Origin: Minisyncoccia bacterium
Lineage (GTDB): Bacteria; Patescibacteriota; Minisyncoccia; Phycocordibacterales; UBA9973
Length of the DNA stretch: 64,000 bases
Direction: 5' to 3'
Assembly: GCA_049287045.1 (NCBI GenBank)
Contig: JBAQFC010000009.1
Coordinates: 946-64,945, forward strand
The translations under genes were made by a program, and so were the position numbers. The notes beneath the pieces are model-generated. The model worked only from the letters and a program-made list of their open reading frames with translations, was not told where the DNA came from and ran no database searches. How positions within the stretch are numbered: the first letter of the stretch is position 1; every line of letters starts with the position of its first letter. This document shows, in pieces, positions 6,637-39,371 of the stretch.

Positions 6637-7494
6637 CTAGAAGATCTTATGCCATATAAAACGGACAAGAAAGAAAACGATAATACTTAAAAGACTGTAA
6701 AATATGAGTTTATTATTAAAAATAGCTGAAGATAAAGTAAGAAAGAAAAGTTCTACATATTTAAATGGTTTTAAAAATTTACTTTTATTTAATTTGGATG
6801 TAGTACTATTTTCTACTGTGGTACCACCACTATCTAGTGTTTTAATTTCAGTTTTAGTTATTTCTTTTTTATTTGCTGAATTTGTGCCCATATATTCTCT
6901 GAATCCATCAATCGCACTTGCTGTCATTGATATAGGTTTAGCGATAAAATCAGGAGTTTTTTCGGCTATTAGTTTTTGAATATTTTGTATAGCTCCTATG
7001 CTTGAATTATCTGCGGTATTATCTGTATTAGAGTCAGGATTAGTAACTATTTTTATTATTTTTTCTACAGTACGTTCACTCTTTTCTGTTTCATTCTCGG
7101 TAAGAAGGATATCTTCATATTTTCCTTTTGATATTAAAAATTTAGCATTTTCAATCTTGCCATAAATTAAATGGTCACCAGCTGTCACTGTCCAATCGAT
7201 AAAAATATCTTTTACTCCATTTGCTGGCACTGTAAAATTTTTAGTACCTAGAAAGGTGGTTTTATCAAAAAAGATTACAGTACCCGAAATTTCTTTACTG
7301 TCTGGGTTGATAACTAGAGTATAAATTTTAATTTTATCACCATCTAGAAATGGGTCTTTAGAATATCTAATATTGGCAGATGCAAAGCCTACATTGGGTG
7401 AACTTTGTGCTTTAGCTATTCCACACAAAAATTTTACAGGGGCAAAAGAGATTAAAAGAATAAATAGGAATAAAATTATTTTTCTTTTTCGCAT
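6637..7494 (-). CDS. Hypothetical secreted/membrane-anchored protein
   Basis: N-terminal signal peptide, C-terminal TM helix; no recognised motifs. Confidence 0.4.
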   Translation of the reverse strand: MRKRKIILFLFILLISFAPVKFLCGIAKAQSSPNVGFASANIRYSKDPFLDGDKIKIYTLVINPDSKEISGTVIFFDKTTFLGTKNFTVPANGVKDIFIDWTVTAGDHLIYGKIENAKFLISKGKYEDILLTENETEKSERTVEKIIKIVTNPDSNTDNTADNSSIGAIQNIQKLIAEKTPDFIAKPISMTASAIDGFREYMGTNSANKKEITKTEIKTLDSGGTTVENSTTSKLNKSKFLKPFKYVELFFLTLSSAIFNNKLIFYSLLSIIVFFLVRFIWHKIF

Positions 7495-22116: not shown

Positions 22117-22680
22117 TTAAATTTTTCCAACCAAATCAATCCCTGGTGTTAATACCTCTTTTCCTGGCTCCCAGTTTGCGGGACAGACGTTTTCACTATG
22201 TTCTCTGACAAATTTAGCTGCTTGTAGTTTTCTTAACATTTCCTTTGCACTTCTGCCAATATTATTGGCATGTATTTCGATTGTTTTTAAAACTCCATCA
22301 GGATCAATAATAAATGTACCACGTAAAGATAAACCCTCAGCTTCAATATAAGTTCCAAACATCATTGATACACTTCCAGTCGGATCAGCTAACATTGGAT
22401 ATTGTATTTTACTTATGGTCGGTGAGCTATCATGCCACGCTTTATGAGCAAAGGCGGTATCAGTACTAATGCTCATTATCTCCCCTCCTAAATTTTTAAC
22501 TTCTTCATAATACGTAGATGCATCTTCTAATTCTGTCGGACAAACAAAAGTAAAATCAGCTGGGTAAAAAATCAAGATTACCCATTTACCCTTGTATTCA
22601 GAAAGTTTTATTTTCTTTATTTCATTATTTTGGTATGCATCTACTTCAAAATCAGGCACAATTGAATTTATATTTATCAT
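22117..22680 (-). CDS. 2-Cys peroxiredoxin (AhpC/Tsa family)
   Basis: FTFVCPTELE peroxidatic Cys motif, 187 aa. Confidence 0.85.
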   Translation of the reverse strand: MININSIVPDFEVDAYQNNEIKKIKLSEYKGKWVILIFYPADFTFVCPTELEDASTYYEEVKNLGGEIMSISTDTAFAHKAWHDSSPTISKIQYPMLADPTGSVSMMFGTYIEAEGLSLRGTFIIDPDGVLKTIEIHANNIGRSAKEMLRKLQAAKFVREHSENVCPANWEPGKEVLTPGIDLVGKI

Positions 22681-22696
22681 AATATGATTATATCAA

Positions 22697-23062
22697 TTAA
22701 AAACCTGAAGCACGAGTTACGCTATCTAGGTTGATTTGTTTAGAATCATCTTTGTCTTTTATTAATTCTTTTAGAAGAACATAAATATCCTGTAGCTCTG
22801 AATTAACTATTCGTGCTTCCAAAAATATTCCATCCTCATGAGGAGTCCTTTCTTTTGAAATAACTTTTTCTATTTTTAGAACTATTACTTCACTAAAGAA
22901 TGGTTTATAAATATTCAGCATATCCTCAATACTATATTTAGCAGTGTAAAGTTCATCTGATTTTAATAACTCCAAATTTCCCAATGTGAGCATTTTTCTT
23001 ACCTTCACAAAATGTGACATTAAATTTTCTACCAATTCCTTGTTTGTCATATAAGTACACAT
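22697..23062 (-). CDS. Hypothetical protein
   Basis: ORF 121 aa. Confidence 0.4.
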   Translation of the reverse strand: MCTYMTNKELVENLMSHFVKVRKMLTLGNLELLKSDELYTAKYSIEDMLNIYKPFFSEVIVLKIEKVISKERTPHEDGIFLEARIVNSELQDIYVLLKELIKDKDDSKQINLDSVTRASGF

Positions 23063-23210: not shown

Positions 23211-23486
23211 ATGGGAAATCTTATTTACCACTCATTGCCGTTTATTTTGGCTATCATTATCACTTTGTACACTATGTATCTATTTTTTACAAGAGGTATA
23301 ATTGTAAACGTAGTTGGGCTATTAATGTTAGCTTTCAATTTAACAATTTGGGGAGCCTGGTTTTTACCAAATGTCCCAAATAGTCCATTAACAATATGTA
23401 CAGTTCTTGTATTTACTGCATCAACAATTTTAATTTTTGTTATTGCTAAATATTTTATTGATGGCACGAAAAAAATTCAACAATAG
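23211..23486 (+). CDS. Small membrane protein (3 TM)
   Basis: ORF 91 aa hydrophobic; followed by terminator. Confidence 0.35.
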   Translation: MGNLIYHSLPFILAIIITLYTMYLFFTRGIIVNVVGLLMLAFNLTIWGAWFLPNVPNSPLTICTVLVFTASTILIFVIAKYFIDGTKKIQQ

Positions 23487-23564: not shown

Positions 23565-24191
23565 TCAATTAAACGTTAAGGTGTGACGAATTTGATCAAA
23601 CTGATCTAAAAGTGCTTTTTCGTTAAATTGTTTTATTGTCCCCTCTGGATAGTTTTCAAGAACTCCATAATGAATAAAATAACGTACTGCTATACATGAG
23701 TTTGTTCCTGGAATTGCGTATATTTTTTCCTCGTATCTATTTCCTGCTGCTGCGCCGGTAGATGAAGCATACGAATAAGTCATATTTCCATCAATCAAAC
23801 TACTAGCTTTAGCTTGATCTAGAAAAAGATCCGCTGTGCAATTTTTACTCTGTTTGATATTTTCAATACTTATATATGAATCATTGCTTAGGTTTGTTCC
23901 ATCTGATATTGATTTTGGAATAGCAAATTTTATACCTTCTATGTCTTTGCCAGGTCCTAGCATTTGGTATTTATATGTATTATCAATAATAAAATTTTCT
24001 GGATATGTTACAGACATATGCAAAGCAATATCTGTATAAGTTTTGTATTGCGTCATTTCTAGTTTGATTGGCAAATAATATATATTTATTTTTCGCTCCC
24101 CTATCACAAAACCAACAAAAAAAGTTGAAACAAATAAAACAACCGCAAGCAGTTTAGAATACCAAGTTACTTTGTAAAATTCTATTTTCAT
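23565..24191 (-). CDS. Hypothetical membrane-anchored extracytoplasmic protein
   Basis: ORF 208 aa, N-terminal TM. Confidence 0.4.
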   Translation of the reverse strand: MKIEFYKVTWYSKLLAVVLFVSTFFVGFVIGERKINIYYLPIKLEMTQYKTYTDIALHMSVTYPENFIIDNTYKYQMLGPGKDIEGIKFAIPKSISDGTNLSNDSYISIENIKQSKNCTADLFLDQAKASSLIDGNMTYSYASSTGAAAGNRYEEKIYAIPGTNSCIAVRYFIHYGVLENYPEGTIKQFNEKALLDQFDQIRHTLTFN

Positions 24192-24285
24192 AAATTAATT
24201 ATACTACTTCTAAGTTTATACGTTCAATTTTAATTTAAAATAAAAAAACATCCCTTACAAAGAGATGCTTTTACTGACATTTTTA

Positions 24286-24873
24286 TCATATTTTTTTATT
24301 AGCTTGTGCCAAAAATAATTTATAGCTACAGTTTACAATCTTGTCATCCATGTATCCAGCATACCCATGTTGAAAGAACGTGATTCCTGTTGGATTAATC
24401 CAATACTGTGCAAAAAAATTTCTTGGATCGTTGTCGTCATTTTTATATACATCAACAAGAATAGATATTATCTTACTTTGATCATTTTTAAATGTATGAA
24501 AATGATGTATGTTATTCAGACTATCACGAAGAATATAATCGTGTTCTGTCCAAAAACGATATTCTCTTTCAGTAAAATCAGGAGTTCCATGTTTTTCAAC
24601 ATAGTTGGCTAGCCTGTTAAACTTTCTTTTACTCATTGCTAAGGTCGGTACAGATATTTCTTCTTTAGGATCTAAATAAAAATATTCATCCATAGATGTT
24701 GAAATATTTGTATTACTTGTTTGAGTAACTTGCGATTGTTTTACTTTATTAGAACAACTAACAAAGATAAAAATAAATAAAGTTAATACGAAAACTGAGA
24801 TTACATTTTTCATGATATATAGTTTTAATTGGGTTACCACAAACCCCTTATATTTAGGATCTTTGGTAACCAA
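24286..24873 (-). CDS. Putative lipoprotein (probable start at internal MKNVISVF..., lipobox FVSC)
   Basis: signal + L-x-x-C lipobox-like motif. Confidence 0.4.
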   Translation of the reverse strand: MVTKDPKYKGFVVTQLKLYIMKNVISVFVLTLFIFIFVSCSNKVKQSQVTQTSNTNISTSMDEYFYLDPKEEISVPTLAMSKRKFNRLANYVEKHGTPDFTEREYRFWTEHDYILRDSLNNIHHFHTFKNDQSKIISILVDVYKNDDNDPRNFFAQYWINPTGITFFQHGYAGYMDDKIVNCSYKLFLAQANKKI

Positions 24874-24945
24874 TCAAAACATTTTTAAGGAGCTAATTAA
24901 CTAACTTAAGTATAGCATAATTATATTAAAAAGTCAATAGATATA

Positions 24946-24963
24946 AACCTTATAAAATAAGGC
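24946..24963. repeat. Minimal R1-type hairpin CCTTAT-aaa-ATAAGG (followed by gcttata) upstream of bcp
   Basis: aaccttataaaataaggcttat; same stem arms as the long R1 elements. Confidence 0.4.
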
Positions 24964-25024
24964 TTATATAACTTATTAACTTTTTTCATATGGTACACAC
25001 ATATATAAGTGATATAGTTTATAT

Positions 25025-25474
25025 ATGCTCAAAGTAAAAACTCTAGCTCCAAATTTTAAACTTTTAGACCAAGATGGAAAGGAACATTCACTTGTTTACC
25101 ATCGTGGTTCTTATGTTCTTATTTATTTTTATCCCAAAGATGATACACCTGATTGTATAAAAGAAGCTTTCAGTATACGTGACTTATATAAGGATTTTAA
25201 AGCTAATGATATTAAAGTTTTTGGTATAAGTCCTGATTCAATAGAAAGTCATAAAAAATTTGCAGAAAAATATAATCTTCCATTCACTTTATTATCTGAC
25301 CCTGAAAAAAAAGTTATCCAAATGTATGAAGCAGATAGTATTATTTTCTGTAAACGAATTTCATATCTAATAGGCCCTGACGGAACGATAGAAAAAGTTT
25401 ATCCCAATGTAGACCCCGCTAAACATGGCATTGAAATACTTAACGACTTTTATGATTTACATTTTAAACGGTAA
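25025..25474 (+). CDS. bcp: Thiol peroxidase Bcp/PrxQ (peroxiredoxin)
   Basis: LIYFYPKDDTPDCIKEA matches Bcp FYPKDDTPGCT. Confidence 0.8.
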   Translation: MLKVKTLAPNFKLLDQDGKEHSLVYHRGSYVLIYFYPKDDTPDCIKEAFSIRDLYKDFKANDIKVFGISPDSIESHKKFAEKYNLPFTLLSDPEKKVIQMYEADSIIFCKRISYLIGPDGTIEKVYPNVDPAKHGIEILNDFYDLHFKR

Positions 25475-25507
25475 GAAAAAATATAAAATAGATGACAATG
25501 ATAGATT

Positions 25508-25975
25508 CTATTTATTTATCACTGTGACAATAGCCGATTCAAGTTTTGTTGGTTCATCAGTTCCGATTCGATAGATTTTTCCGTTCTTCATAATTAATTC
25601 AACCGCATCAAAACCTGAAACACTATATATCCACATTTTGGGCCACAGCCACAATTTTATTCCCCATCCATAATACCAATGATTCTTTACTGTTCTAACT
25701 GAAGCTATTTGATTAAGTGCGAACTTCCTGGTAAAAATTCCGTAACCAAATTTGATCCGGAGGTAGTTTTCATCAGTCGAAACCGTCAGCGTGGCAAACG
25801 ATGCAAGAATAAACACAATCAACACCATCACAGCAGTAACGAGAAAATTTGTGCCGGAGTCGACTGAAGGAGGTTCGGCCCTGGCCGTAAGATGAGCCCA
25901 TGTGAAAAACACCAGCACGGCTAGCGTAATAACCAGCATCAGATATCCAATTTGAGTGTGTTTATATGAAACCAT
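25508..25975 (-). CDS. Membrane protein with C-terminal bacterial PH-like domain (tentative)
   Basis: 2 TM then beta-rich ~90 aa region; weak resemblance to bPH_2. Confidence 0.35.
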   Translation of the reverse strand: MVSYKHTQIGYLMLVITLAVLVFFTWAHLTARAEPPSVDSGTNFLVTAVMVLIVFILASFATLTVSTDENYLRIKFGYGIFTRKFALNQIASVRTVKNHWYYGWGIKLWLWPKMWIYSVSGFDAVELIMKNGKIYRIGTDEPTKLESAIVTVINK

Positions 25976-26012
25976 AAATATATTATATCAAATAAAGTTA
26001 AAAATACGAGTT

Positions 26013-26067
26013 GACCTTATTGGACAATATTGGAGGCATTTTTAATGCAGAATGAGGTTTAAATATC
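26013..26067. repeat. R1 intergenic element copy A (gaccttattggac...ttggagg...tttttaat...gaggtttaaa)
   Basis: aligned by eye with copies at 26607, 27343, 28051. Confidence 0.55.
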
Positions 26068-26155
26068 TTATTTATATTTCTTTAACTTCAATAATATCTT
26101 GAGTGATAATCTTTGAAGAATATTAAGAATCAGAATGTTAAAATCTTTTTCATAA

Positions 26156-26560
26156 TTATTTATTTAGATAAGTTATAGTTAATTGTAATACTGTTGCAAA
26201 TGACACCCACAATAAATAAGGGATATTTATATAAACAACCCATCTAAGTTCTGGTAATGCATTCCAGACAACAAAAAGAGCCCATATAAGAGTTGTAAGA
26301 ACTAGAACAATATCAACAGCTGCAAGAAGATTATTTTTCAGCCCAAATTGGATGGGGGTAAAAGCTAAATTAAAAATAAGATTTAAAATAAAAGGTAATA
26401 CTATTATCCAAGAAAGTTTGGCATTAAAAGCCTTATAAAAAACTGCCCCAAAAGAAACAAAAATAATAGCGTATAAAAGAGTCCAAACAGGACCAAAAAT
26501 CCAGCTAGGTGGTGCCCAGGTAGGTTTGATTAGATGTTGATACCAATCATATGTGTTCAT
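26156..26560 (-). CDS. TspO/MBR-family tryptophan-rich membrane protein
   Basis: WYQHLIKPTWAPPSWIFGPVWTLLYAII matches TspO N-terminal signature (W..L.KP.W.PP...F.PVW..LY). Confidence 0.55.
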   Translation of the reverse strand: MNTYDWYQHLIKPTWAPPSWIFGPVWTLLYAIIFVSFGAVFYKAFNAKLSWIIVLPFILNLIFNLAFTPIQFGLKNNLLAAVDIVLVLTTLIWALFVVWNALPELRWVVYINIPYLLWVSFATVLQLTITYLNK

Positions 26561-26606
26561 AATAAAATTATATCATAGTTGATATCCGATATTTGGATTT
26601 AGTGCT

Positions 26607-26649
26607 AACCTTATGGGACGCTGTCGAATCTATTTTAATAAATAAACAA
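26607..26649. repeat. R1 intergenic element copy B
   Basis: aaccttatgggacgctgtcgaatctattttaataaataa. Confidence 0.5.
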
Positions 26650-26680
26650 TAAAAAAGGGCTTCACGTTACATGAAGCCCT
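26650..26680 (-). terminator. Rho-independent terminator
   Basis: gggcttcacgttacatgaagccc + T-run on minus. Confidence 0.65.
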
Positions 26681-26689
26681 TAATAAACA

Positions 26690-27193
26690 TTAATAAATTC
26701 TACGATGCTGTCGTATTGGTTTAGTCAATTCAATACCATCATCATAATGTCTGGAATTAAGATTTTTAATTTTTTCATAAAGCTTTTCGGAATTATATAA
26801 AACATCAACTGGTGATTCCTGATCTTTAAAAAGATGTCCGAATAAACCAACATAATCAGAATTTGTTTTCCCATAAAGTTTTATATAGGACTTAGTTTCA
26901 AGCGAGGAAAAAGAAATTAATCCACCCAAATACACATAAGAATATATAGGTAAATCTACAAAAACGATTGCTCCCGGATTATTATATTCAATCAAAACTT
27001 GATTGTTCTTTGTTTTAGTAATGCCATTTTCTGGTACATCAATAAGTTTGTAACAATTATAATTTGGGACGAACGAAAAGTGTATTGTTTCATCAAAAAT
27101 TAATAGTTTGTCACCCGCGAGAATATCCTTTACCTGTTTCTTGATTATAAAACTATTTGAATCAGGTAATAAGAAAGAATTTATTTTTTTCAT
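26690..27193 (-). CDS. Hypothetical protein
   Basis: ORF 167 aa. Confidence 0.4.
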   Translation of the reverse strand: MKKINSFLLPDSNSFIIKKQVKDILAGDKLLIFDETIHFSFVPNYNCYKLIDVPENGITKTKNNQVLIEYNNPGAIVFVDLPIYSYVYLGGLISFSSLETKSYIKLYGKTNSDYVGLFGHLFKDQESPVDVLYNSEKLYEKIKNLNSRHYDDGIELTKPIRQHRRIY

Positions 27194-27267
27194 ATTTTAT
27201 AGATTTAAATTGTTTAATTGATTGATTTACTTTATTCTCCATTTAGAAGCACAAGGTAAATCAATCA

Positions 27268-27437
27268 TTAACAAATAAACCAAATATCAAAGAGCTATTA
27301 TTGTTTGGATAATAGAGTATTTATATCAATATGTCAATTACTGACATTATGGGACAAAATTGAAACCTTTTTGATACAAAATAAGGCTTAAATTCAGTGC
27401 TGTTTGTCTAGTGCGACGTTGGAACATTTTTGAAATC
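27268..27437. repeat. Composite R2+R1 element (R2: aaataaaccaaatatcaaagagctattatt-hairpin-...tgtcaattactgaca; R1: gacattatgggac...ttgaaacctttttgat...aaaataaggcttaaa) plus partial second R1 core (cgacgttggaacatttttgaaatc)
   Basis: direct sequence comparison with 28768-28871 and other R1 copies. Confidence 0.55.
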
Positions 27438-27448
27438 TATTTAACTCT

Positions 27449-28018
27449 CTAACGTGATTCACCCTCAAAATCAGGCACGACAATCCCCCATTGCATTGTT
27501 GCTGGATTAAGTTTTAAATATGTACTTTTACCGACAGAAGGGATGGCCGTCATCGGTTCATTCGATTTACGTTCTGTATAGTTAACCACGATTACATTTT
27601 TATGCTGCGAATTAGGGCTAATTTCAGTAGTTTGCGGAGCTATCCTATCTCCCAATAAATATCCATCAGAGCCGGCGTATCCAGTGTCTGTTTTTAGAGC
27701 AGCCATAACATAAAAGAAAGTGCCTGAGCCACCGCTGTTCTGGGTGAGAAGAAAAACGACATCTTCTTGGCCATCATTGTTTAAGTCTGTTTTTAGTTCG
27801 TTACCAAAATATTGAGTGGTAAGCTTCGAAACAGAACCTGGTGTAATATCTGTTTGAGCGGCACCGTCTTGCAGTTTTATTTTTTTGCCTTCGATGACAT
27901 ACTCTATATTTTTGTAGCCAATTTCCACAACCGTTTGTTTGCGTACATAAGCATTTAACATAAAAAATCCGACAACAATAACAACAATCATCAGAAAAAA
28001 TAAAAAGGTTTTTTTCAT
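27449..28018 (-). CDS. Hypothetical secreted/membrane-anchored protein
   Basis: ORF 189 aa, N-terminal TM. Confidence 0.4.
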   Translation of the reverse strand: MKKTFLFFLMIVVIVVGFFMLNAYVRKQTVVEIGYKNIEYVIEGKKIKLQDGAAQTDITPGSVSKLTTQYFGNELKTDLNNDGQEDVVFLLTQNSGGSGTFFYVMAALKTDTGYAGSDGYLLGDRIAPQTTEISPNSQHKNVIVVNYTERKSNEPMTAIPSVGKSTYLKLNPATMQWGIVVPDFEGESR

Positions 28019-28024
28019 GTAAAC

Positions 28025-28033
28025 ATTATAGCA
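28025..28033 (-). promoter_or_regulatory. Extended -10 (TGcTATAAT) 6 nt upstream of ATG: leaderless-type promoter
   Basis: minus-strand reading cgTGCTATAATgtttacATG. Confidence 0.4.
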
Positions 28034-28050
28034 CGCAGGAACAATTTGCT

Positions 28051-28102
28051 GACCTTATGAGACGATGTAGGAAACTTTTTGATGGAAAATAAGACCTAAA
28101 CC
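28051..28102. repeat. R1 intergenic element copy D
   Basis: gaccttatgagacgatgtaggaaactttttgatggaaaataagacctaaacc. Confidence 0.55.
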
Positions 28103-28124
28103 CCATATCTTTCAATAAATCGAA

Positions 28125-28166
28125 TAAAAAAAGCCGTATCTTTAGAAAATCTCTAAGGATACGGCG
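28125..28166 (-). terminator. Rho-independent terminator
   Basis: gccgtatctttagaaaatctctaaggatacggc + T-run on minus. Confidence 0.6.
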
Positions 28167-28187
28167 TTCACTATTTGTATAGTGTAT

Positions 28188-28688
28188 TTATTTTGAAATA
28201 GTATAAGCAATTCCTGTATTACACGGTAATTGTTCTGATAAATCTAAGCCCGAATAGAAGTATTGATCTTCAATTTTTTTAAGGCAAATAGTTGTTAACC
28301 AATAACCTTGAGGGTCGTAACAAAGTTTACCGATTCTTGGTATTACAACTTGTTTAAAGTTACCAAAATTTAATTTTTCAAAATTATCAGCTATCAAACA
28401 GGCAATTTCAAAGTAAGGTTTCTCTAATTTAACATTTAAGAGTTTTTCAACTTTTTGTTTATTCATTGGCTTGATTATTATAATCTCAGTATCACCACGA
28501 AATGGTGAATTGAAATTATTGTCATTATTTAAAACAAATTCAAAGACCCCGTTATTATTACTAGATGTTTTCTTAGTAACAATATTGAAATGTTTATTTT
28601 TTAAATAATTCAGCCATTGTTTTCCAGACCTATCTTGTGGTTTAATTGTGAGACGAATAAATTCATCATTAGATTTAATACTATTCAT
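28188..28688 (-). CDS. Hypothetical protein
   Basis: ORF 166 aa. Confidence 0.4.
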   Translation of the reverse strand: MNSIKSNDEFIRLTIKPQDRSGKQWLNYLKNKHFNIVTKKTSSNNNGVFEFVLNNDNNFNSPFRGDTEIIIIKPMNKQKVEKLLNVKLEKPYFEIACLIADNFEKLNFGNFKQVVIPRIGKLCYDPQGYWLTTICLKKIEDQYFYSGLDLSEQLPCNTGIAYTISK

Positions 28689-28767
28689 TTTTATTTTTGA
28701 TTTAAATTAGTTTGCAATATTGCTCTGTAGAAATCAATAAATGACGTCCAGAGAGCAATACACAAAA

Positions 28768-28871
28768 AAATAACCAAATATATCAAAGAACTATTATTAC
28801 ATAAAATAATAGCATATTTTATTCATTTGTCAATTACTGGCAGTCTGGTATGAAGTTGGAACTTTAATGAC
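28768..28871. repeat. Composite R2 + partial R1 element (aaccaaatatatcaaagaactattattacataaaataatag...tgtcaattactggcagtctggtatgaagttggaactttaatgac)
   Basis: ~70% identical by eye to 27268-27345; internal 8-bp hairpin ctattatt/aataatag. Confidence 0.55.
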
Positions 28872-30120
28872 TAGCGAGAAGCTTTGTTAATTCAACTATT
28901 ATTCCTTGAGCAATAACATTGCCAGCAACTCCTTCAAATATAGTCTTTAGAGAAGTAAGGGTTGTTTTAATTTTTGATTGATTGGGTGTATCTTTATAAA
29001 TCTCCTTTTTTAATTCTATTGCTAGTGTTTCGATGTTTTCTTTTTCTTCTGTTCTAAGTTTTATTTTAGTAAGAAATTTTTGCATTTGACCGACTAGATC
29101 AATAACTTTTTCTTGAGAAAATCCATTTACTTGTTTAATAGAAACATACGCTTGGTCAGTAATACTTCCAATCGATCCTGCAAAATTTTCTATATGGCCA
29201 ATACTATATGATGATGATGATGTTTGTTGGACAAACATAGCAACAGAACCCTGTATATTTTTTAATGCTCTTTTAAGTTCAGAGACTGTAGTAATAATTC
29301 TTTTATCATCATTTTTTGTATTTGGGTCAAATATATATTCCATCAGTTCTATCGCTTCGGTAGTTTTTACAGGAAGTTCTTTTTTTATTTCGGGTAATGC
29401 TTTCTCAACTTCCTTTGTTTTTATTATTCTTGGCTCAAAAATAAAAGGTGAAGTAATAGTTTCAGAATCTACGTATACAGGTACATGATCAGAGATTTTT
29501 CCTAGAGAGATAGAACTATCCATAAGAACAGTCGCTCCATTTTTAAATATCTCACTGTCTGCAAGAATACTAAATTGATTTTGAACAGCTTGTCCGTATG
29601 CCAAAACTGTCGTTATGCTTTCTGACAACTTGATTACTTCGTTAGCTTTGATGTGGTATTCCGTAGCCAAACGAAGACTTGAAGTAACTGATGGGATGTT
29701 TATTCTATCTATCGCTTCTATAGTAAGTCTGCCGTGAGTTAGAGCTATAGCTGATGCCGATTCTATTGATTTGAGTAGCCCGTTATTTTCAGAAAATACT
29801 GATGCGACATTATTGACCCCAACCATAAAATTTCTGGCATCGCTGATAGTTTTTATTTTCATCTCCAAAAGATTTTCTCCTAGAGCATTTACTCCCAGTA
29901 CTCCTGCTTGTGTGGCGAGTGTGAGCGATTGATAATCACTCCTTGCGGTTATTCCTACTATATCTACAGTAGATGCTCCACAAGCCAGGTCCAAGGTACT
30001 CTTATAGCCAGTATTTACAAAACTATCAATAGACCTAGCAGTGCTTATATTCTTTGGGATTTTTATGACACTAGGGTCAGTTTCCTCATCGTTCTTCTTT
30101 TGTTCATTATTATCTGCCAT
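28864..30120 (-). CDS. Hypothetical protein (418 aa, no recognisable domain)
   Basis: long ORF with consistent codon usage. Confidence 0.45.
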   Translation of the reverse strand: MADNNEQKKNDEETDPSVIKIPKNISTARSIDSFVNTGYKSTLDLACGASTVDIVGITARSDYQSLTLATQAGVLGVNALGENLLEMKIKTISDARNFMVGVNNVASVFSENNGLLKSIESASAIALTHGRLTIEAIDRINIPSVTSSLRLATEYHIKANEVIKLSESITTVLAYGQAVQNQFSILADSEIFKNGATVLMDSSISLGKISDHVPVYVDSETITSPFIFEPRIIKTKEVEKALPEIKKELPVKTTEAIELMEYIFDPNTKNDDKRIITTVSELKRALKNIQGSVAMFVQQTSSSSYSIGHIENFAGSIGSITDQAYVSIKQVNGFSQEKVIDLVGQMQKFLTKIKLRTEEKENIETLAIELKKEIYKDTPNQSKIKTTLTSLKTIFEGVAGNVIAQGIIVELTKLLASH

Positions 30121-30230
30121 AGTAATTGTAATTTATGCTTAAAACATAGTGATTTTAGCATATTTTGCTTTGAAAATAAAGATTTTTTGTTATAGTTACA
30201 TTGTTTAGTCACAATAAAACACTTTTAACG

Positions 30231-30273
30231 TTTGATACGAAGTTGGAACCGTTTTATTGGAAAATAAGGATTA
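30231..30273. repeat. R1-related element copy F (gatacgaagttggaaccgttttattggaaaataaggattaa)
   Basis: shares ttggaac-N5-tt..t.g and aaaataagg with other copies. Confidence 0.45.
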
Positions 30274-30358
30274 ATTACCTTAAAATTTTTCTGTTTTAAT
30301 TTATCTGGTCATATTGAACTATCTTTTAGTTTTTATAAAAAAGAGTATACTTATAAAT

Positions 30359-30631
30359 ATGATTTATCTTATAACGTATGATTTAAATAAACCTGGAAAG
30401 GATTATAATTCTTTATATACAGCACTACGACAGTGTCAATACATAAGGGATACTGGATTAGATTCTGTCTGGTTTGTTTCTGTTGCGACATGGAATTCCA
30501 CACAAATTTATGAATATCTCCGTGTTCATCTTGATGTAAACGATAGACTTTTTATTACACAAATTACGCGTGGAACCAATTATGGCTGGATGAATAAAGA
30601 AGTCTGGGATTGGATTAACGCTCGTGTTTAA
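30359..30631 (+). CDS. VapD/Cas2-fold endoribonuclease-like protein (tentative)
   Basis: MIYLITYDLNKPGKDYNSLYTALRQCQYIRDTGLDSVWFVSV...NDRLFITQI aligns by eye with VapD (YALAFDL...DLRQEL...GSVYV...RDIRAFKV) and Cas2 (LVLVTYDV...SVFEC...DSLRIY); ORF track starts at 30314. Confidence 0.35.
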   Translation: MIYLITYDLNKPGKDYNSLYTALRQCQYIRDTGLDSVWFVSVATWNSTQIYEYLRVHLDVNDRLFITQITRGTNYGWMNKEVWDWINARV

Positions 30632-30640
30632 ATAAAAAAA

Positions 30641-31195
30641 TTAAACCATGTTGTAAGCAATTGTACGATAATCCATCACAAGAACATACGGTAATAGTTT
30701 GTATTTATCTTTAATTCTTTCATCTTTTGTAAGTATTGCTATTTTTTTCTTTTTATCTGTAAAATCATCCGCCATAACAAATATTGATATATCTCCAGAT
30801 TCTATTATAGGTTTTGCTTTATCAATTTGTTTACAAAAATCTATTTTAGATACTGAATATTCACTCATTCCTTCTAGTATCGGAAATACTTCTTCAACTA
30901 TGTCTTTGTAATCTAAACGATTATTATAATTTACTTCAAGATGGCGACATGTCTCAGTGAGAATATGTGGAGTAACGTAAAGCTTATTAAGATGTTGAGT
31001 TACATGTAGCAAATCAAATACAACATTAATTTGTTCGAATTCCGACAATATATCTAGTTTTTTTTTACTGATTCTTGTTTCAACTAAACCATTGATCAAT
31101 TCATAAAGAACACACGTGTCGATAATTATCCCATTTCTTAAAAAAGGTTCTATTGTTATACCGTAATCTTCTAGTCTTATATTATCTAAAGTCAT
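30641..31195 (-). CDS. PIN-domain (VapC-like) nuclease
   Basis: GIIIDTCVLYELI N-terminal PIN motif; start taken at MTLDNIRL (31195), 1 nt after stop of upstream ORF. Confidence 0.5.
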   Translation of the reverse strand: MTLDNIRLEDYGITIEPFLRNGIIIDTCVLYELINGLVETRISKKKLDILSEFEQINVVFDLLHVTQHLNKLYVTPHILTETCRHLEVNYNNRLDYKDIVEEVFPILEGMSEYSVSKIDFCKQIDKAKPIIESGDISIFVMADDFTDKKKKIAILTKDERIKDKYKLLPYVLVMDYRTIAYNMV

Positions 31196-31196
31196 T

Positions 31197-31559
31197 TTAA
31201 CTCTTCGAGAGTATTGGCGGTGTCGTTTTTTCTTCTGGGGTTGTGGCTGTATCAATTTTATTTTCAGCCCCTCCTTCTCCTTCTTCTGTAACAGTAAATT
31301 TTCTGTCAGGTTCATCTCCTCCAATTTTTTTTATAGACACTGTTTTATTTTCTGTATTTACTACTGCAATATATTTGCTAGGAGTTGGATTTCCTAGGTT
31401 CTCATAGAAACTGCAAGTTAAATTCCATATTTTAGAATCTGTACCTTCTACTGGAACTAGTTCCTCCACACTAAATTTTATTAAACCCAATTGTCCTTGG
31501 GCGCTAGAAAATGCAGCTCTTGCTAGTGTTATTGCTTCAACAGATAAAGAATCACTCAT
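31197..31559 (-). CDS. Hypothetical protein translationally coupled to PIN gene (possible cognate partner)
   Basis: 120 aa; stop codon abuts PIN start. Confidence 0.35.
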   Translation of the reverse strand: MSDSLSVEAITLARAAFSSAQGQLGLIKFSVEELVPVEGTDSKIWNLTCSFYENLGNPTPSKYIAVVNTENKTVSIKKIGGDEPDRKFTVTEEGEGGAENKIDTATTPEEKTTPPILSKS

Positions 31560-31647
31560 ACTTTTGATTATATCACATTATTATAATAATAAAATCCTTC
31601 AGTATTTTCCTTAATACATCCAGGAACAACGAACCTATTTCAAGTTT

Positions 31648-31665
31648 GCTGGGAGACATGGACTC
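31648..31665. repeat. 18-bp direct repeat of tRNA-Gln 3' end (gctgggagacatggactc): att-like
   Basis: identical 18-mer at 32050-32067. Confidence 0.6.
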
Positions 31666-31727
31666 CCTTCGGTAAACTCAGGGTTAACTCCATATCTAAA
31701 TCCAAATCTTATAGCACTTCAACATAC

Positions 31728-32015
31728 TCAGTGTAAGCCTTTCAGTTCTTCAAGACAAGTATTAATACCTAACTTACCATCAATGAGCATTTGCTTCTTT
31801 GTGCGACTCCATCTTTTTAATTGTTGTTCTCTTTTTGCTGCTAAATCCTTACTTTGATATTTTTCACAATATACAATTTTTATCTCAGAAAACTTTTTTG
31901 TAAAAAATGATTCTTTATTTATATGTTCAAACAACCTTCTTCTTAAATTATCAGTTATTCCGATGTAAAAAGTTTTCTGGTCGCAAAGAAGTATATAAGT
32001 AAAATGTTCTTTCAT
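31728..32015 (-). CDS. GIY-YIG nuclease family protein (UPF0213-like)
   Basis: FTYILLCDQKTFYIGITDNLRRRLFEH; ORF-track N-terminal extension is read-through of tRNA-Gln. Confidence 0.65.
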   Translation of the reverse strand: MKEHFTYILLCDQKTFYIGITDNLRRRLFEHINKESFFTKKFSEIKIVYCEKYQSKDLAAKREQQLKRWSRTKKQMLIDGKLGINTCLEELKGLH

Positions 32016-32050
32016 TATTACAAATCGTTTACACTGAGCCTGCCGAAGTG

Positions 32051-32121
32051 CTGGGAGACATGGACTCGAACCATGATTCACGGCTTCAAAGGCCGCTGTC
32101 CTACCATTAGACGATCTCCCA
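32051..32121 (-). tRNA. tRNA-Gln (anticodon UUG)
   Basis: Cloverleaf folded by hand: acceptor TGGGAGA/TCTCCCA, anticodon stem GCGGC/GCCGT, loop cuUUGaa, T-arm CATGG-TTCGAGT-CCATG. Confidence 0.8.
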
Positions 32122-32203: not shown

Positions 32204-33241
32204 CTAATCCTTACTTATTATCTCAATAAGTGCAAGTTCTAGGGGTAATTCTGACACAAATGCTCTATCTATGTTTTGGTACGCTTCGAGCAATACCGAA
32301 AGCTGTGTTGACCTGAGCATTCCTATCTTATCCTTTTTTACCAATTCTTTCAAGAAGTCCAAGTCGACAGTAGATAAAGACCCCATCATTTCTTCTTCAA
32401 GCTTGGGCGCGTATTTCAAAATAATCGCCATGCGGAATTTCTGAATGATGAGCTTCAAGTACAATTTCATATCCAAATTCTCACCTGAAGCTTTTTGCAC
32501 ACTCATAATTCCCTCTTCTAAATTTTTATCAGCAATTGCAGAAATAAAATTATTTACAAGAGTTGTTTTTGGCGCGCCGGTTATTTTCTCGACGTCTTCT
32601 CTATTCACCTTTTTACTTTTCGAGAAATTCAAAACTTTCTGCAAAGCTCCTTCGGTATCACGGAAAGATCCATCACCAAGTATTGCGATTAATTCTGCGG
32701 AACCAGCATCGAGCTCAAAACCTTCTTTCTTTGCAATATCTAAGATAACATTTTTCAAAATAACATCAGACGGTTTTCTGAAAGTAAAAACTTGGCAACG
32801 AGAAACAATTGTCTCAGGGACTTTGTGTAGTTCTGTCGTCGCTAAAATAAATATCACATGCGCTGGTGGTTCTTCTAAGGTTTTCAATAATGCACCCCAA
32901 GCATCTTTGGAAAGCATATGTACCTCGTCGATAATATATATTTTATATTTTGAATCAAAAGGAAGAACTCGCACTCCATCGCGCAGTATTCGAATATCCT
33001 CAATACCTCTGTTTGAAGCGGCATCTATCTCATATAAGTCATTTTCAGAAACTCCGATCTCTGCAGCAAAGATTCTGGCGACAGAAGTCTTGCCTGTACC
33101 GCGAGAACCTACAAAAAGGTACGCATGAGAGACCTTTCCAGTCTCAATAGAGCTTTCTAGCACTTTCACGATATGGTCTTGTCCTAGCACCTCCTTGAAG
33201 GTTTTAGGGCGATATTTACGATATAAAGCTAAGTCATGCAT
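32204..33241 (-). CDS. dnaX: DNA polymerase III subunit gamma/tau (short form)
   Basis: LYRKYRPKTFKEVLGQDHIV...HAYLFVGSRGTGKTS. Confidence 0.7.
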   Translation of the reverse strand: MHDLALYRKYRPKTFKEVLGQDHIVKVLESSIETGKVSHAYLFVGSRGTGKTSVARIFAAEIGVSENDLYEIDAASNRGIEDIRILRDGVRVLPFDSKYKIYIIDEVHMLSKDAWGALLKTLEEPPAHVIFILATTELHKVPETIVSRCQVFTFRKPSDVILKNVILDIAKKEGFELDAGSAELIAILGDGSFRDTEGALQKVLNFSKSKKVNREDVEKITGAPKTTLVNNFISAIADKNLEEGIMSVQKASGENLDMKLYLKLIIQKFRMAIILKYAPKLEEEMMGSLSTVDLDFLKELVKKDKIGMLRSTQLSVLLEAYQNIDRAFVSELPLELALIEIISKD

Positions 33242-33248
33242 AGCGAAA

Positions 33249-34316
33249 TTATACTCCTGATTGAATTAATTTCAAAGAATTTTTAAGGAACTCATTTACT
33301 ATCTTTTCTATCTGTTTAGCATTTTCTGCTTCCATAAGTTTTATACGCAATTCTTTCGCGCCTTCGAAACCATTACAGTAGGCTTTGTAATGTTTTTTCA
33401 TGATTGCAAAATTTTTATGTTTGCCTAAAGTTTTTTCAAAAAGTTTTGTGTGTTCTATTAGGACTTTTAATTTTTCTTTTATGGTTGGAATATGAACTTC
33501 ATCAAGGTCGGACCTTTTTAAATTCTTAAGATCCGACCTTTTTGGGGCAGAATCAAAAAGCCAAGGATTCCCAAAAATAGCTCGTCCGAGCATCGCTCCG
33601 TCACAACCACTTTTTTTAACTTTTTCTTTAGCATCAACTAAATTCAAAACATCACCATTACCGATGATTAAAGTATCTTTGTTTATTTTATTTCTTAGTT
33701 CGACAATTCTAGGCATCAAGTCCCAATGTGCAGGTACGAGAGACATTTCTTTGCGCGTACGCAGATGCACAGTCAAAGCTGCTAAATTTTCTTTTAGTAA
33801 TTCTGGAATCCAAGTTTCAATTTCATTTTTGTTGTAACCAATGCGAGTCTTTACGGATATTGACAATCCTCCACTGCCTTCTTTTGCGGCACGAATTATT
33901 TGTAATGCATGTTTCGGATCTTTGATTGATGCTGCACCAGAACCTTGTTTCTCGATAGTTTTATCTGGACAACCCATATTGATATCAATACCATCAAAAC
34001 CAAGCTTGGCACAAAGGGCTGCTGCTGAGCGAATATTGTCTGGATTGGATCCGAAAATCTGTGCAACTATCGGATGTTCATTTTTACTGAACTTCAAACC
34101 AATAACAAGCTTTTTGCGTGCTTCAGGATGAGCAAGGCCATCAGCTGAGACAAACTCAGTCCAAAACACATCTGGGCCACCACCGACCTTGCCATGACGT
34201 GAATATTTAGCGATTATTTGTCTAAAAGCACAGTCCGTGACATCTGCCATCGGAGCCAGACAAAAGAATGGCGCTTTTAATTCATTCCAGAAATTTTTAA
34301 CTTTTTTAGTTCTCAT
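33249..34316 (-). CDS. dus: tRNA-dihydrouridine synthase
   Basis: FCLAPMADVTDCAFRQI Dus signature. Confidence 0.8.
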   Translation of the reverse strand: MRTKKVKNFWNELKAPFFCLAPMADVTDCAFRQIIAKYSRHGKVGGGPDVFWTEFVSADGLAHPEARKKLVIGLKFSKNEHPIVAQIFGSNPDNIRSAAALCAKLGFDGIDINMGCPDKTIEKQGSGAASIKDPKHALQIIRAAKEGSGGLSISVKTRIGYNKNEIETWIPELLKENLAALTVHLRTRKEMSLVPAHWDLMPRIVELRNKINKDTLIIGNGDVLNLVDAKEKVKKSGCDGAMLGRAIFGNPWLFDSAPKRSDLKNLKRSDLDEVHIPTIKEKLKVLIEHTKLFEKTLGKHKNFAIMKKHYKAYCNGFEGAKELRIKLMEAENAKQIEKIVNEFLKNSLKLIQSGV

Positions 34317-36488: not shown

Positions 36489-36494
36489 GTTGAG

Positions 36495-36502
36495 ATTATA
36501 TA
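36495..36502 (-). promoter_or_regulatory. -10 box (TATATAAT) 6 nt upstream of serS ATG (leaderless-type)
   Basis: minus strand attaTATAATctcaacATG. Confidence 0.4.
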
Positions 36503-36645
36503 ATATTCTTATTATAATTACAAAGCTAGAAAATTACGAAGAATATATTTTATAAAACACACATATTTTCTTGCTAGAAAATTGCTATACTCGGCCCGTC
36601 GGCCTGTGTAATGTTTTCTAAAACATATTCTTCGTAATTTTCACT

Positions 36646-37532: not shown

Positions 37533-39371
37533 TTATTCTACTGTTACAGATTTTGCTAAATTACGAGGCTTGTCTATATCACAACCACGTAGGACTGCAA
37601 TATGATATGCAAGAAGCTGCAAAGGTATTGTAGCAACAAAAGGCATCATAGTTTCTGAGGTTTCTGGAATTTCTATAGAATAGTCCGCAATCTTTTTGGC
37701 TTCAGTGTCACCTTCAGTAACAATAGCGATAATGATTCCTTTGCGTGCTTTTACTTCCATCATATTACTGATTACTTTTTCATACGAAGGTCCGTGAGTC
37801 GCAATAAAAACAACCGGCATATTTTCATCAACAAGAGCAATAGGTCCGTGTTTCATTTCTGCTGCTGGATAGCCTTCTGCATGTATGTATGAAATTTCTT
37901 TCAACTTAAGAGCTCCTTCGAGAGCTAAAGGAAAAGCATACCCTCGTCCAAGATAAATAAAATTTGTGGCGTCTTTGAATTTTTCTGCGATTTTTTTTGT
38001 AACATCATCAACCAAAAGAACCTTTTCAACTTTCTTAGGAATATTTTCAAGTTCCGTAAGAATCTTTTTCATTTCTTCTTTATTTAAAATTTCCTTCGCC
38101 TCTGCGAGCCATAAACACATCAACATCAAAACTGTAAGCTGAGAAGTAAAGGCCTTAGTAGAAGCGACACCAATCTCTGGTCCAGCATGGGTATACACGC
38201 CAGCATGAGTCGCACGAGGAATAGATGAACCGACAACATTACAAACTCCAAAAACAGTCGCGCCTTTTTCTTTAGCAAGATTGAGAGCAGCTAGAGTATC
38301 AGCTGTTTCTCCTGATTGAGAAATGGCAATAACTAAATCATTTTCATAAACCACAGGATTGCGATATCGAAATTCAGAAGCGTACTCGACAGAAACTGGC
38401 ATATGAGCAATATCCTCAAAAAAATATTTTGCTTCGAGTCCAGCATGCCAAGAAGTACCGCAAGCCAAGATTATTATTCTTTTTGCATCTAAAAATTGTT
38501 GTTGGTAATTCTCTATGCCCCCTAACTTTATCATCCCGTCTTCAGAACTTATTCTTCCACGCATAGAGTCATGTATTGAACGTGGCTGTTCAAAAATTTC
38601 TTTCAACATAAAATGTGGAAAGCCTCCTTTCTCCAGATCTTCTATTTTCATTTCCAATTTTTGAATGTAAGGATCTATGATTTCATTTTGAATTGTCTTT
38701 ACGACAAGTTTGCCATTTTTAATAACAGCCATCTCTCCGTCTTCTAGATAAATAACTTTATTTGTATATTCAATGATTGGAGTGGCATCAGATGCAATAA
38801 AATATTCTTCATCTCCAATGCCTAGAACTACCGGACTTCCTTTTTTAGCAATTATTACTGTCTCAGGTTCTTCTTTACATAACACTACTATCGCATACGC
38901 ACCGACAACCTTGGACAACGCAAAACGTACAGCTTCATCTATAGAAGTATTTGTGTTCTTTTTAACATCTTCGATCAAATTTACTAGAACTTCTGTATCT
39001 GTATCACTATCAAAGTGATAACCTTTTTCTATTAGGACTTTTTTAAGAGAAGCATAATTTTCTATTATACCGTTATGAACAAGAGCAATATTACCAGAAT
39101 TTGAAAGATGAGGATGAGCATTTCTGTCAGAAGGTTCTCCGTGAGTCGCCCAACGAGTATGCGCGATACCAACTGCGCCTGAAATATTTTTGTCCATTGC
39201 GAACTTTGAGAGTTCAGCGACTTTGCCTTTTTTCTTGTAAACAGATAAAGAATTTTGTCCTAAAAGTGCAATACCTGCACTATCGTATCCACGATATTCA
39301 AGACGTTCTAGACCTTTAATTAAAATAGGCCAAGCTTCCCTTTTTCCAATGTATCCAACTATTCCACACAT
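37533..39371 (-). CDS. glmS: Glutamine--fructose-6-phosphate aminotransferase
   Basis: MCGIVGYIG N-terminal nucleophile; SIS domains; 612 aa. Confidence 0.9.
   Translation of the reverse strand: MCGIVGYIGKREAWPILIKGLERLEYRGYDSAGIALLGQNSLSVYKKKGKVAELSKFAMDKNISGAVGIAHTRWATHGEPSDRNAHPHLSNSGNIALVHNGIIENYASLKKVLIEKGYHFDSDTDTEVLVNLIEDVKKNTNTSIDEAVRFALSKVVGAYAIVVLCKEEPETVIIAKKGSPVVLGIGDEEYFIASDATPIIEYTNKVIYLEDGEMAVIKNGKLVVKTIQNEIIDPYIQKLEMKIEDLEKGGFPHFMLKEIFEQPRSIHDSMRGRISSEDGMIKLGGIENYQQQFLDAKRIIILACGTSWHAGLEAKYFFEDIAHMPVSVEYASEFRYRNPVVYENDLVIAISQSGETADTLAALNLAKEKGATVFGVCNVVGSSIPRATHAGVYTHAGPEIGVASTKAFTSQLTVLMLMCLWLAEAKEILNKEEMKKILTELENIPKKVEKVLLVDDVTKKIAEKFKDATNFIYLGRGYAFPLALEGALKLKEISYIHAEGYPAAEMKHGPIALVDENMPVVFIATHGPSYEKVISNMMEVKARKGIIIAIVTEGDTEAKKIADYSIEIPETSETMMPFVATIPLQLLAYHIAVLRGCDIDKPRNLAKSVTVE

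Follow-up and report, generated by a model that had tools for sequence, protein, structure and literature searches.

Additive flexible genomic islands at tRNA genes in Alteromonas and other marine bacteria usually carry integrases, the Bacteroidales rAID-1 orphan-immunity arrays adjoin a conserved tyrosine recombinase, and the pdif sites of Acinetobacter have two inverted 11-nucleotide (nt) arms and alternate in orientation. The core sites of tyrosine and serine recombinases normally have inverted arms. In T4-type phages, composite promoter–terminator cassettes termed PeSL (promoter-early stem-loop) shuffle ORFans in hyperplastic regions (PMC2839356, PMC4122927). Here we describe a gene array next to dnaX and a tRNA-Gln gene in one 64-kb stretch of a Patescibacteria genome (the whole stretch is referred to below as the window), and a short oriented sequence, the junction element, that recurs between the genes of this array.

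Patescibacteria, also known as the candidate phyla radiation (CPR), are ultra-small bacteria with very reduced genomes that depend on other microbes, and mobile elements have rarely been recognised in them. The ways in which they acquire and swap accessory genes are a largely unsettled matter on which this locus bears. An original prediction made from the sequence had proposed that eight consecutive minus-strand genes form a cassette-like array punctuated by structured repeats, as in an integron or another hypervariable island. We compared the window with a handful of related loci, all of which are metagenome assemblies.

Results

Gene content and order beside dnaX

The window has a GC content of ~32% and contains the housekeeping genes serS, ftsQ, dus, dnaX, dprA, glmS, topA, relA/spoT, parB, miaA and rplI, as well as a murA-like gene and a gene for PBP2. 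The best relatives of its DnaX are from 'Candidatus Nomurabacteria' and 'Paceibacterota' metagenome-assembled genomes (78–79% identity). One array protein, g189, has a 100% identical match in a 'Minisyncoccia bacterium'. On these grounds we take the window to be chromosomal DNA of a Nomurabacteria-like Patescibacterium. The window's own arrangement was matched by a separate assembly (L001), which was 100% identical over 2,374 nt. The close relatives used for comparison were L082 (GCA_036169735.1) and L086–L088, which are independent assemblies from three sequencing runs.

Between the window and L082, SerRS, FtsQ, Dus and DnaX were 96–99% identical at the amino acid (aa) level, and the DNA was 92.8% identical over 4,014 nt. 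This homology ended exactly at the dnaX stop codon. Within the next 7.2 kb of L082, ~0.8 kb (12%) aligned to the window, consisting of the tRNA, the TspO coding sequence, one promoter/leader module (see below) and two short non-coding pieces. This segment of L082 contains an unannotated 241-aa open reading frame (ORF), a divergent tRNA-Gln and ten other genes, among which only TspO (87% aa identity) is present in the window. It also carries five co-oriented copies of the junction element. The 241-aa ORF (4042–4767) sits between dnaX and tRNA-Gln (4782–4853). Inspection by eye had raised the possibility of a LAGLIDADG protein; searches against Pfam, NCBIfam and PDB sequences gave no match, and we make no claim for it. 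Because the L082 tRNA-Gln was ~75% identical to that of the window while the flanking genes were 93% identical, the tRNA itself appears to have been replaced.

In L086–L088 the element stands before TspO (95% identity), and 22 nt separate TspO from the g208 homologue that comes next (89%; gene names are given in Table 1). As TspO and g208 are adjacent in these assemblies, the 1.96 kb that carries g155, bcp and g195 is missing there. A 300-aa gene occupies the place of g167, with the g167 promoter/leader kept at 89% identity, and a homologue of the 213-aa gene that directly follows TspO in L082 is found two genes before TspO. The resulting order is 213-aa gene, 300-aa gene, element, TspO, g208 in L086–L088; g167, element, TspO, element, g155, bcp, g195, g208 in the window; and 88-aa gene, TspO, 213-aa gene in L082.

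Two more distant genomes each had a single copy of the element at the same locus. The order in L105 is dnaX, tRNA-Gln, NUDIX, element, GDSL lipase, 82-aa gene and g189 homologue, and that in L002 is NUDIX, element, Ogt. No copy was present at the L008 locus. In L008 (DnaX 78% identical), dnaX and tRNA-Gln are followed by efflux genes equivalent to 54–58 kb of the window and then by homologues of window positions 6637–2558. When positions 7500–32100 of the window were compared with 11080–17250 of L008, ~25 kb of the window, a region extending beyond the array, was without counterpart at that locus. The peroxiredoxin gene at 22117–22680, considered as a guide to the left border of the variable region, had no homologue with more than 87% identity except on its own contig.

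These comparisons show that the array changes its genes and their order much more rapidly than the neighbouring core genes accumulate differences, and they strongly support the view that the region is a flexible accessory-gene array anchored at dnaX–tRNA-Gln. Since gene content and order differ almost completely between relatives, the objection that gene order might be conserved fails.

The junction element

The element was identified by repeat finding and alignment followed by a weight-matrix scan. Seven copies were detected, all on the minus strand within 26008–30257 and nowhere else in the 64 kb (37-nt scan windows 30221–30257, 28834–28870, 28046–28082, 27397–27433, 27338–27374, 26602–26638 and 26008–26044). 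These copies scored 31–47 bits, compared to a shuffle maximum of 16.5 bits, and no position elsewhere in the window scored above 12 bits. In a leave-one-out analysis the omitted copy scored 10–38 bits and always ranked next behind the other copies among 128,000 positions. The scan and the leave-one-out analysis thus bear out the claim that one repeat family occupies these places, and its division into subtypes R1 and R2 also holds. The objection that such repeats might be generic architecture upstream of housekeeping genes fails within the window, where no housekeeping gene was preceded by a copy.

A core consensus was derived from 26 instances from all sources. The core, RGTTCYRACWTCGTMCCA.A..GYCAGCAA, is contiguous, 28–30 nt long and contains ~33 bits, with neither dyad symmetry nor an unconserved spacer that would make it bipartite; CA at core positions 25–26 is invariant. 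The R1 core reads ..TCGTCCCATAAGGTCAG.. (also given as ..TCGTCCCATAAGGYCAGCA) and the R2 core ..TCGTACCAGACNGCCAG.. (also given as ..TCGTACCAGACNGCCAGCA). An A-rich module of ~26 nt, TTTAAGCCTTATTTTG.AT.AAAAA, precedes about half of the copies. The core is asymmetric and points in a constant direction within arrays. Spacing between copies ranged from 59 to 1,812 nt, and the intervals contain whole genes. Against the best copies elsewhere (44–48 bits) the window copies were degenerate (19–38 bits), and arrays typically consist of one near-consensus copy plus degenerate copies.

The repeats had been described as structured, but segments containing only the repeat gave fold z-scores of −1.3 to +0.65, no better than shuffles as either RNA or DNA. 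Significant folding was found only at true terminators and at a hairpin at 24946. The latter had been listed as a minimal R1 copy; it lacks the core and consists of a hairpin that resembles the A-rich module, followed by a promoter/leader module. The element had no match in Rfam, which recognised only tRNAs in the window and seven related loci at gathering thresholds and at permissive E-values.

Pairs of attC R''/R' core sequences (RYYYAAC/GTTRRRY, 55–150 nt apart) occurred once per strand in 8 kb, away from the repeats, compared to 1.9 ± 1.9 in shuffles. This chance-level count agrees with the earlier failure to see attC sites by eye, and together with the fold z-scores it led us to reject a hairpin or attC structure for the element. 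REP, BIME or MITE repeats were rejected on the basis that there is no hairpin and no inverted copy, and that the seven copies are confined to a single strand and to 4.3 kb of the 64-kb window. A CRISPR array does not fit a spacing of 59–1,812 nt with whole genes in the intervals, as opposed to spacers of 26–72 nt. Local alignments of the element to tRNAs scored within the shuffle range, which disposes of a tRNA-derived att site.

Homology changes at the element

To compare copies pairwise we divided each into a 60-nt left flank, the A-rich module, two core halves and a 60-nt right flank. The TspO copy of the window and its L086 counterpart matched at 50/60 positions in the right flank and 6/60 in the left flank, and their core halves matched at 9/14 (5') and 13/16 (3') positions. 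The g167 copy of the window matched L082 6706 at 26 positions in the right flank and 8 in the left. For L082 9155 versus L086 3988 the corresponding values were 23 in the left flank, 17 in the A-rich module and 8 in the right flank, and the g155 copy of the window matched L082 9155 at 22/30 positions in the A-rich module, 8/60 in the outer left flank and 7/60 in the right flank. In all four informative pairs the switch in homology fell within the core or at its edge. These alignments show that homology between relatives changes from one neighbour to another at the element, and we infer that the element is a preferred exchange point for the units. The switch in homology makes plausible the recombination-site-like role for which the repeats had earlier been proposed.

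Promoters, leaders and terminators

The g155, TspO, g189 and g208 genes have a TATAAT box exactly 6 nt before the ATG, as in leaderless transcripts, and at TspO, g155 and g189 the box has the form TGnTATAAT. A TAnnWT-N5-8-start pattern was found at 21 of the 63 ORFs of the window, dnaX and serS included, and none of the 21 has the element. The exact TATAAT-N6-ATG arrangement also occurs at dnaX, serS, the 22117 peroxiredoxin gene and the efflux operon, while relA and parB have TAAAAT. Boxes of this kind lie at 33242–33260 (dnaX), 36489–36505 (serS), 22681–22697 (peroxiredoxin) and 24192–24208 (g208). No Shine–Dalgarno sequence was evident at ORFs with a TATAAT-like box 5–8 nt (usually 6 nt) before the start. 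The boxes near starts at 21/63 ORFs and the lack of Shine–Dalgarno sequences there suggest that leaderless mRNAs are widespread in this Patescibacterium. As these 21 leaderless-type promoters lack the element, generic promoter architecture was ruled out as its identity.

A second promoter type is common to g167, g166 and g195. It consists of TTGACA/T-N17-TATWMT, a TAGYTCTTTGATAT box near the likely transcript start and a hairpin leader of ~110 nt. The g167 module precedes unrelated genes in L086 (89% identity) and L082 (76%), and window positions 24908–24969, upstream of g195, match the end of the L082 contig. The module was located at 27194–27337, 28689–28833 and 24814–24937 in the window, at 6738–6884, 8194–8326 and 11116–11193 in L082 and at 188–333 in L086, ahead of unrelated genes in these three genomes; homology of the module stops 10–20 nt inside the coding sequence. 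RNAalifold predicted a hairpin in the module with some double changes, but the covariation term was unfavourable (+1.39), so that a conserved RNA structure is at most putative. Between the divergent bcp and g195 genes, a hairpin within 24930–24995 (RNA, −18.1 kcal/mol, z = −5.3) has a stem, AAGCCTTAT...ATAAGGTTT, that resembles the A-rich module of the junction element.

The original prediction assigned a terminator to each gene; we recognised terminators after four of the eight minus-strand genes (g208, g195, g167 and g166). The copies ahead of g189 and TspO, like those at L082 7343 and 9155, show the order terminator–element–promoter; other copies are without a terminator. In the window, L082, L091 and L094 the core ends 0–3 nt before TTGACA. 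With their own TATAAT or TTGACA-N17-TATWMT promoters, the array units can presumably be transcribed on their own.

Several specific promoter and operator identities of the element were considered and rejected. A TspO regulon was rejected because four more TspO loci lack the element. An extracytoplasmic function (ECF) sigma factor promoter was rejected because the window encodes no sigma factor and the core is incompatible with GGAAC-N16-CGTC spacing; an ECF sigma gene does occur near the L105 locus, but no copy of the element precedes that gene. Sigma-54, sigma-32, Xer/dif, CtsR and Pho-box readings, compared by eye, each fit the core only in part, and none was adopted.

Distribution of the element

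When 241 million metagenome records were searched with one degenerate pattern, seven matches were obtained, two of which lie in coding sequence (62% and 32% GC) and probably arose by chance. The other five, from sequences of 29–46% GC, have GTTCYRACATCGTCCCATAAGGYCAGY in common (mostly ...GGCCAGC), well past what the pattern required. On short metagenome contigs in this range of 29–46% GC the core GTTCYRACATCGTCCCATAAGGCCAGCA occurred in co-oriented clusters, with four copies in 1.7 kb of L091 and three in 1.6 kb of L094; the extra copies could not have been selected by the pattern. L091 and L094 each have one interval in which the predicted ORF is on the opposite strand, indicating that element orientation follows the array rather than the gene. 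These contigs have no proteins in common with the window. ARAGORN and Rfam detected no tRNA in L091, and by eye L094 has two tandem copies of a roughly 100-nt unit at positions 1–230, downstream of its last element copy.

Among 1.39 Mb of comparison loci, mostly non-CPR dnaX regions, only two weak matches at chance level were found outside such contigs. A phage or plasmid origin was rejected because the element had no match in viral contigs (IMG/VR), phage genomes (INPHARED) or plasmids (PLSDB). A search confined to open-access text found no description of such arrays in CPR.

Genes of the array and its head

The coordinates of the array are given in Table 1. All-versus-all blastp found the array proteins to be mutually unrelated, in agreement with the claim that the genes have no common family, so that the repeats cannot be put down to duplication of paralogous genes. 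The run of eight minus-strand genes is interrupted by a plus-strand gene, bcp. The TspO assignment was upheld by Pfam, while the bPH-like label of the 155-aa protein found no support there. Four genes had been called ORFans; this no longer applies to the 189-aa protein, which has more than 3,600 homologues. A TspO-like fragment just past g208 on the opposite strand (23246–23374 within ORF 23211–23486; 39.5% identity over 43 aa to L082 TspO, E = 5e-5) may be a remnant of a second TspO unit.

Table 1. Positions of the array genes, junction-element copies and neighbouring features in the window
Feature	Position	Strand	Remarks
dnaX	32204..33241	-	Stop codon is the exact end of the 92.8% nt homology with L082
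tRNA-Gln(UUG)	32050..32121	-	With dnaX, conserved anchor of the variable region
tRNA-Gln 3'-end duplication	31647..32067	-	19-nt exact direct repeats (32049–32067 and 31647–31665) flank the GIY-YIG ORF
GIY-YIG nuclease ORF, 95 aa	31728–32015	-	Pfam E = 1.2e-14
Head of array	30314..31559	mixed	Cas2-fold protein, weak PIN-like protein and g120; all three missing from relatives
g120	31197–31559	-	
Weak PIN-like ORF	30641–31324	-	
Cas2-fold 90-aa protein	30359–30631	+	phrog_1090; ~1,000 representative homologues
Copy 1, A-rich upstream module	to ~30280	-	
Core copy 1	30221..30250	-	R2-type, weakest, 19.2 bits; 101 nt upstream of g418 start
g418	28864..30120	-	C-terminal third weakly like AbiTi / PDC-M14B candidate defence proteins (E = 5e-7)
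Core copy 2	28834..28863	-	R2-type, 32.4 bits; starts right after g418 stop codon; TTGACA directly next
Promoter/leader module, g166	28689..28833	-	Same type as g167 module
g166	28188..28688	-	No family match
Copy 3, A-rich module	to ~28105	-	
Core copy 3	28046..28075	-	R1-type, best in window, 38.2 bits; 28 nt upstream of g189 ATG
g189	27449..28018	-	Secreted or membrane-anchored; family widespread in Patescibacteria, 3,666 matches at E<=1e-5
Core copy 4	27397..27426	-	R2-type, 24.5 bits; orphan, 22 nt past g189 stop, no gene before copy 5
Copy 5, A-rich module	27368–27396	-	
Core copy 5	27338..27367	-	R1-type, 33.7 bits; g167 promoter directly next
Promoter/leader module, g167	27194..27337	-	TTGACA-N17-TATTAT, TAGCTCTTTGATAT box, hairpin leader
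g167	26690..27193	-	No family match
Core copy 6	26602..26631	-	R1-type, 33.6 bits; 42 nt upstream of TspO ATG; start of L086 homology
TspO/MBR family	26156..26560	-	Pfam E = 1.7e-26; sole array gene common to both close relatives
Copy 7, A-rich module	26038–26067	-	Matches L082 9120–9180
Core copy 7	26008..26037	-	R1-type, 27.6 bits; 33 nt upstream of g155 ATG
g155	25508..25975	-	Membrane protein; bPH label without Pfam support
Bcp/PrxQ-type peroxiredoxin (bcp)	25025..25474	+	Opposite strand, inside array; missing from L086 between TspO and g208
Promoter/leader module and hairpin, g195	24814..24977	-	Hairpin 24946–24977; module of g167 type
g195	24286..24813	-	Lipoprotein-like; likely start ATG at 24813
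g208	23565..24191	-	Membrane-anchored; 89% homologue directly after TspO in L086–L088

At the head of the array, the 90-aa protein has a predicted Cas2 fold (pLDDT 95), with Foldseek matches to Cas2 structures at a TM of ~0.6. No Cas1 domain was found among window ORFs of at least 100 aa, and there is no CRISPR array near the Cas2-fold gene. Since the protein is a solo Cas2-fold protein and its gene is missing from relatives, it is more probably a toxin of the Cas2/VapD type, and the gene was set aside as a clue to a recombinase. Next to the weak PIN-like ORF, and without cas1 or a CRISPR array nearby, it probably forms a toxin-type module.

The tRNA att-like duplication noted earlier is real, in that the 19-nt 3' end of tRNA-Gln is repeated exactly, and the nuclease beside it is the GIY-YIG ORF. 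This segment is a small insertion into the end of tRNA-Gln that rebuilt the tRNA. Bracketed as it is by the duplication, the GIY-YIG gene shows that nuclease genes too invade this junction, and such invasion could stimulate local recombination. Farther away, glmS (37533–39371, minus strand) lies between dprA and topA in the window, while dprA and topA are adjacent in L002 and L008; glmS is apparently a single-gene indel within an otherwise syntenic block.

Discussion

The explanation that we tentatively favour is a PeSL-like shuffling of self-sufficient single-gene units at a conserved junction element that also affects the promoter. The array would be built of single-gene units, each with its own promoter and about half with their own terminator, joined by the oriented element, that is, by the core and often the preceding A-rich module. 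Units would be gained, lost and reordered by crossing over at the repeated element, most likely through recombination between its copies, either within the genome or with DNA acquired by natural transformation. DprA is encoded in the window, and Saccharibacteria have been transformed simply by adding DNA (PMC13622651). Conservation of the core across very different GC contents suggests that a sequence-specific protein would recognise it, and, as the core lies immediately before the −35 box in several lineages, the same protein may well affect transcription of the downstream unit too.

Four observations weigh against this explanation. A core of 28–30 nt is short for RecA-dependent exchange. Breaks in homology also occur at codons, namely at the TspO stop codon in all three genomes, at the g208 ATG and at the TspO ATG in L082, so the element is not the sole exchange point. 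The core lies anywhere between 5 and 29 nt from the leaderless TATAAT box, a spread at odds with an activator of fixed geometry. Finally, in L002 and L105 the element fills the whole 42–47-nt gap between stop codon and ATG, an arrangement closer to that of a recombination scar or site than to that of a regulatory cassette.

This last feature is what would be expected if a dedicated recombinase or nuclease, encoded at another place in the genome, recognised the core, and if cross-overs there excised and inserted the units, as in a site-specific cassette system analogous to the integron, which we consider possible yet doubtful. Such a system would also account for a contiguous core of high information content that is nearly identical in contigs of 29–46% GC, for an orientation that stays constant within arrays even beside reverse-strand ORFs, for the gene-less orphan copies at 27397–27426 and L082 9155, for arrays with a single near-consensus copy among degenerate ones, and for unit sizes of 0.6–1.4 kb, like those of integron cassettes. 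However, no recombinase adjoins any array examined. The original prediction had noted the recombinase at 685–1572 as the only one in the window; this sole tyrosine recombinase, 22 kb away from the array, scored best on XerA/XerD/XerC models, and on the integron-integrase model, where the cutoff is 265 bits, it reached 59.9. No Cas1 partner accompanies the Cas2-fold gene at the head of the array, a gene that is also missing from L082, the core lacks the inverted arms of tyrosine and serine recombinase sites, and the breaks are spread over the core and its edges, some at codon boundaries, instead of falling at a single nucleotide.

Alternatively, the element may be purely regulatory. In that case a single transcription factor or alternative sigma factor would use the core as its operator or upstream element and govern a stress and defence regulon (TspO, peroxiredoxin, Ogt and others), and the variability would be unrelated, arising from a tRNA-adjacent hot spot with homing-nuclease genes; the two parts taken jointly seem unlikely to us. 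The element points in the direction of the downstream gene in ~17 of 24 instances, and it abuts TTGACA in four lineages. The core contains GTTC-N7-GTCC, which is like the LexA box of Alphaproteobacteria and other operators made of direct repeats. Among the genes downstream of the element are Ogt in L002 and, in L105, the GDSL-lipase gene followed by the 82-aa gene and the g189 homologue; in L089, a more distant genome, half a copy precedes TspO. Against this, TspO has a copy in the window and L086 but none in L082, L083, L097, L099 and L100, the spacing to the −10 box varies by 24 nt, and some copies face only terminators or reverse-strand ORFs. Moreover, 28 nearly invariant contiguous bases exceed the usual need of an operator, and the window encodes no sigma factor or obvious regulator. 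That the copies are functionless, decaying relics, e.g. what is left of one terminus of an extinct mobile element or side products of promoter-region duplication, would agree with the low scores of the window copies (19–38 bits, with 44–48 for the best elsewhere) and with the common promoter/leader modules, which indicate that non-coding segments get copied. Conservation of the core across contigs of very different GC and its strict orientation within arrays make this very improbable, and no inverted partner, transposase or target-site duplication was found.

At this locus single-gene units have turned over almost completely around one element that recurs in arrays on contigs of no apparent relationship. 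Should the element prove to be a recombination site, it would represent a new gene-capture mechanism and provide a searchable marker for the flexible gene pool of the radiation. One might go further and suppose, with considerable reserve, that Patescibacteria possess their own integron-like gene capture, in which a recombinase or nuclease acts at a sequence-conserved site of 28–30 nt and moves self-expressing cassettes next to tRNA-Gln and in similar arrays elsewhere. If the element is instead the site of a regulator, the accessory, stress and defence genes of CPR would have in it their first cis-regulatory signal of broad conservation.

Among known systems, pdif modules are similar in that gene modules are bounded by sites of ~28 nt, and TCGTCCCATAA GGCCAG resembles a XerC arm plus central region; unlike pdif sites, the element has no second arm and all copies point in one direction. 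The rAID-1 arrays likewise contain unrelated small genes with repeated intergenic sequences and vary between strains, but there the function is immunity, and no tyrosine recombinase adjoins the array described here. Additive flexible islands resemble the array as tRNA-adjacent hot spots in which gene cassettes accumulate and differ between strains, yet they are not known to have a single conserved element of this kind between units.

Integrons and the present array both have co-oriented single-gene units of 0.6–1.4 kb, an oriented repeated site, turnover of content, orphan sites and toxin, defence or stress cargo, and here the units of the co-oriented array differ between close relatives (window versus L082 and L086–L088). 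In contrast to integrons, there is no IntI, no R''/R' core pair or hairpin, and the site is conserved in sequence instead of structure. Integron cassettes are mostly promoterless and expressed from a common Pc promoter, whereas at the sequence level a TATAAT box 6 nt from the ATG is present at four genes of the array, TTGACA-N17-TATWMT plus a leader at three, and a terminator at four, so that units carry their own promoters and often their own terminators. Because IntI and hairpins are lacking, attC cores do not exceed chance and the units have their own promoters, we regard the array as distinct from an integron despite its integron-like large-scale architecture. Of the two possibilities first raised, the hypervariable island is thus borne out by near-complete turnover beside 96–99% identical flanks, and the integron, for want of IntI, attC sites and folding, is not.

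The PeSL cassettes offer a parallel to the shuffling that we favour. Free-standing homing-nuclease genes, which occur in T4, are found in both settings. The present locus differs in being on what we take to be a cellular chromosome (dnaX, serS, topA, relA) and not in a T4-type phage genome, and its core is not a recognisable sigma-70 promoter or stem-loop; mini-circles are a feature of PeSL, and our comparison is confined to sequence. In PeSL, small composite intergenic motifs combining terminator and promoter flank ORFans in variable regions between conserved blocks (PMC2839356, PMC4122927), an arrangement that some copies of the element resemble and that others, being without a terminator, do not. 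As with PeSL, the junctions of insertions, deletions and replacements between close relatives (~95% identical) fall at the motif, with some further breaks at codon boundaries here.

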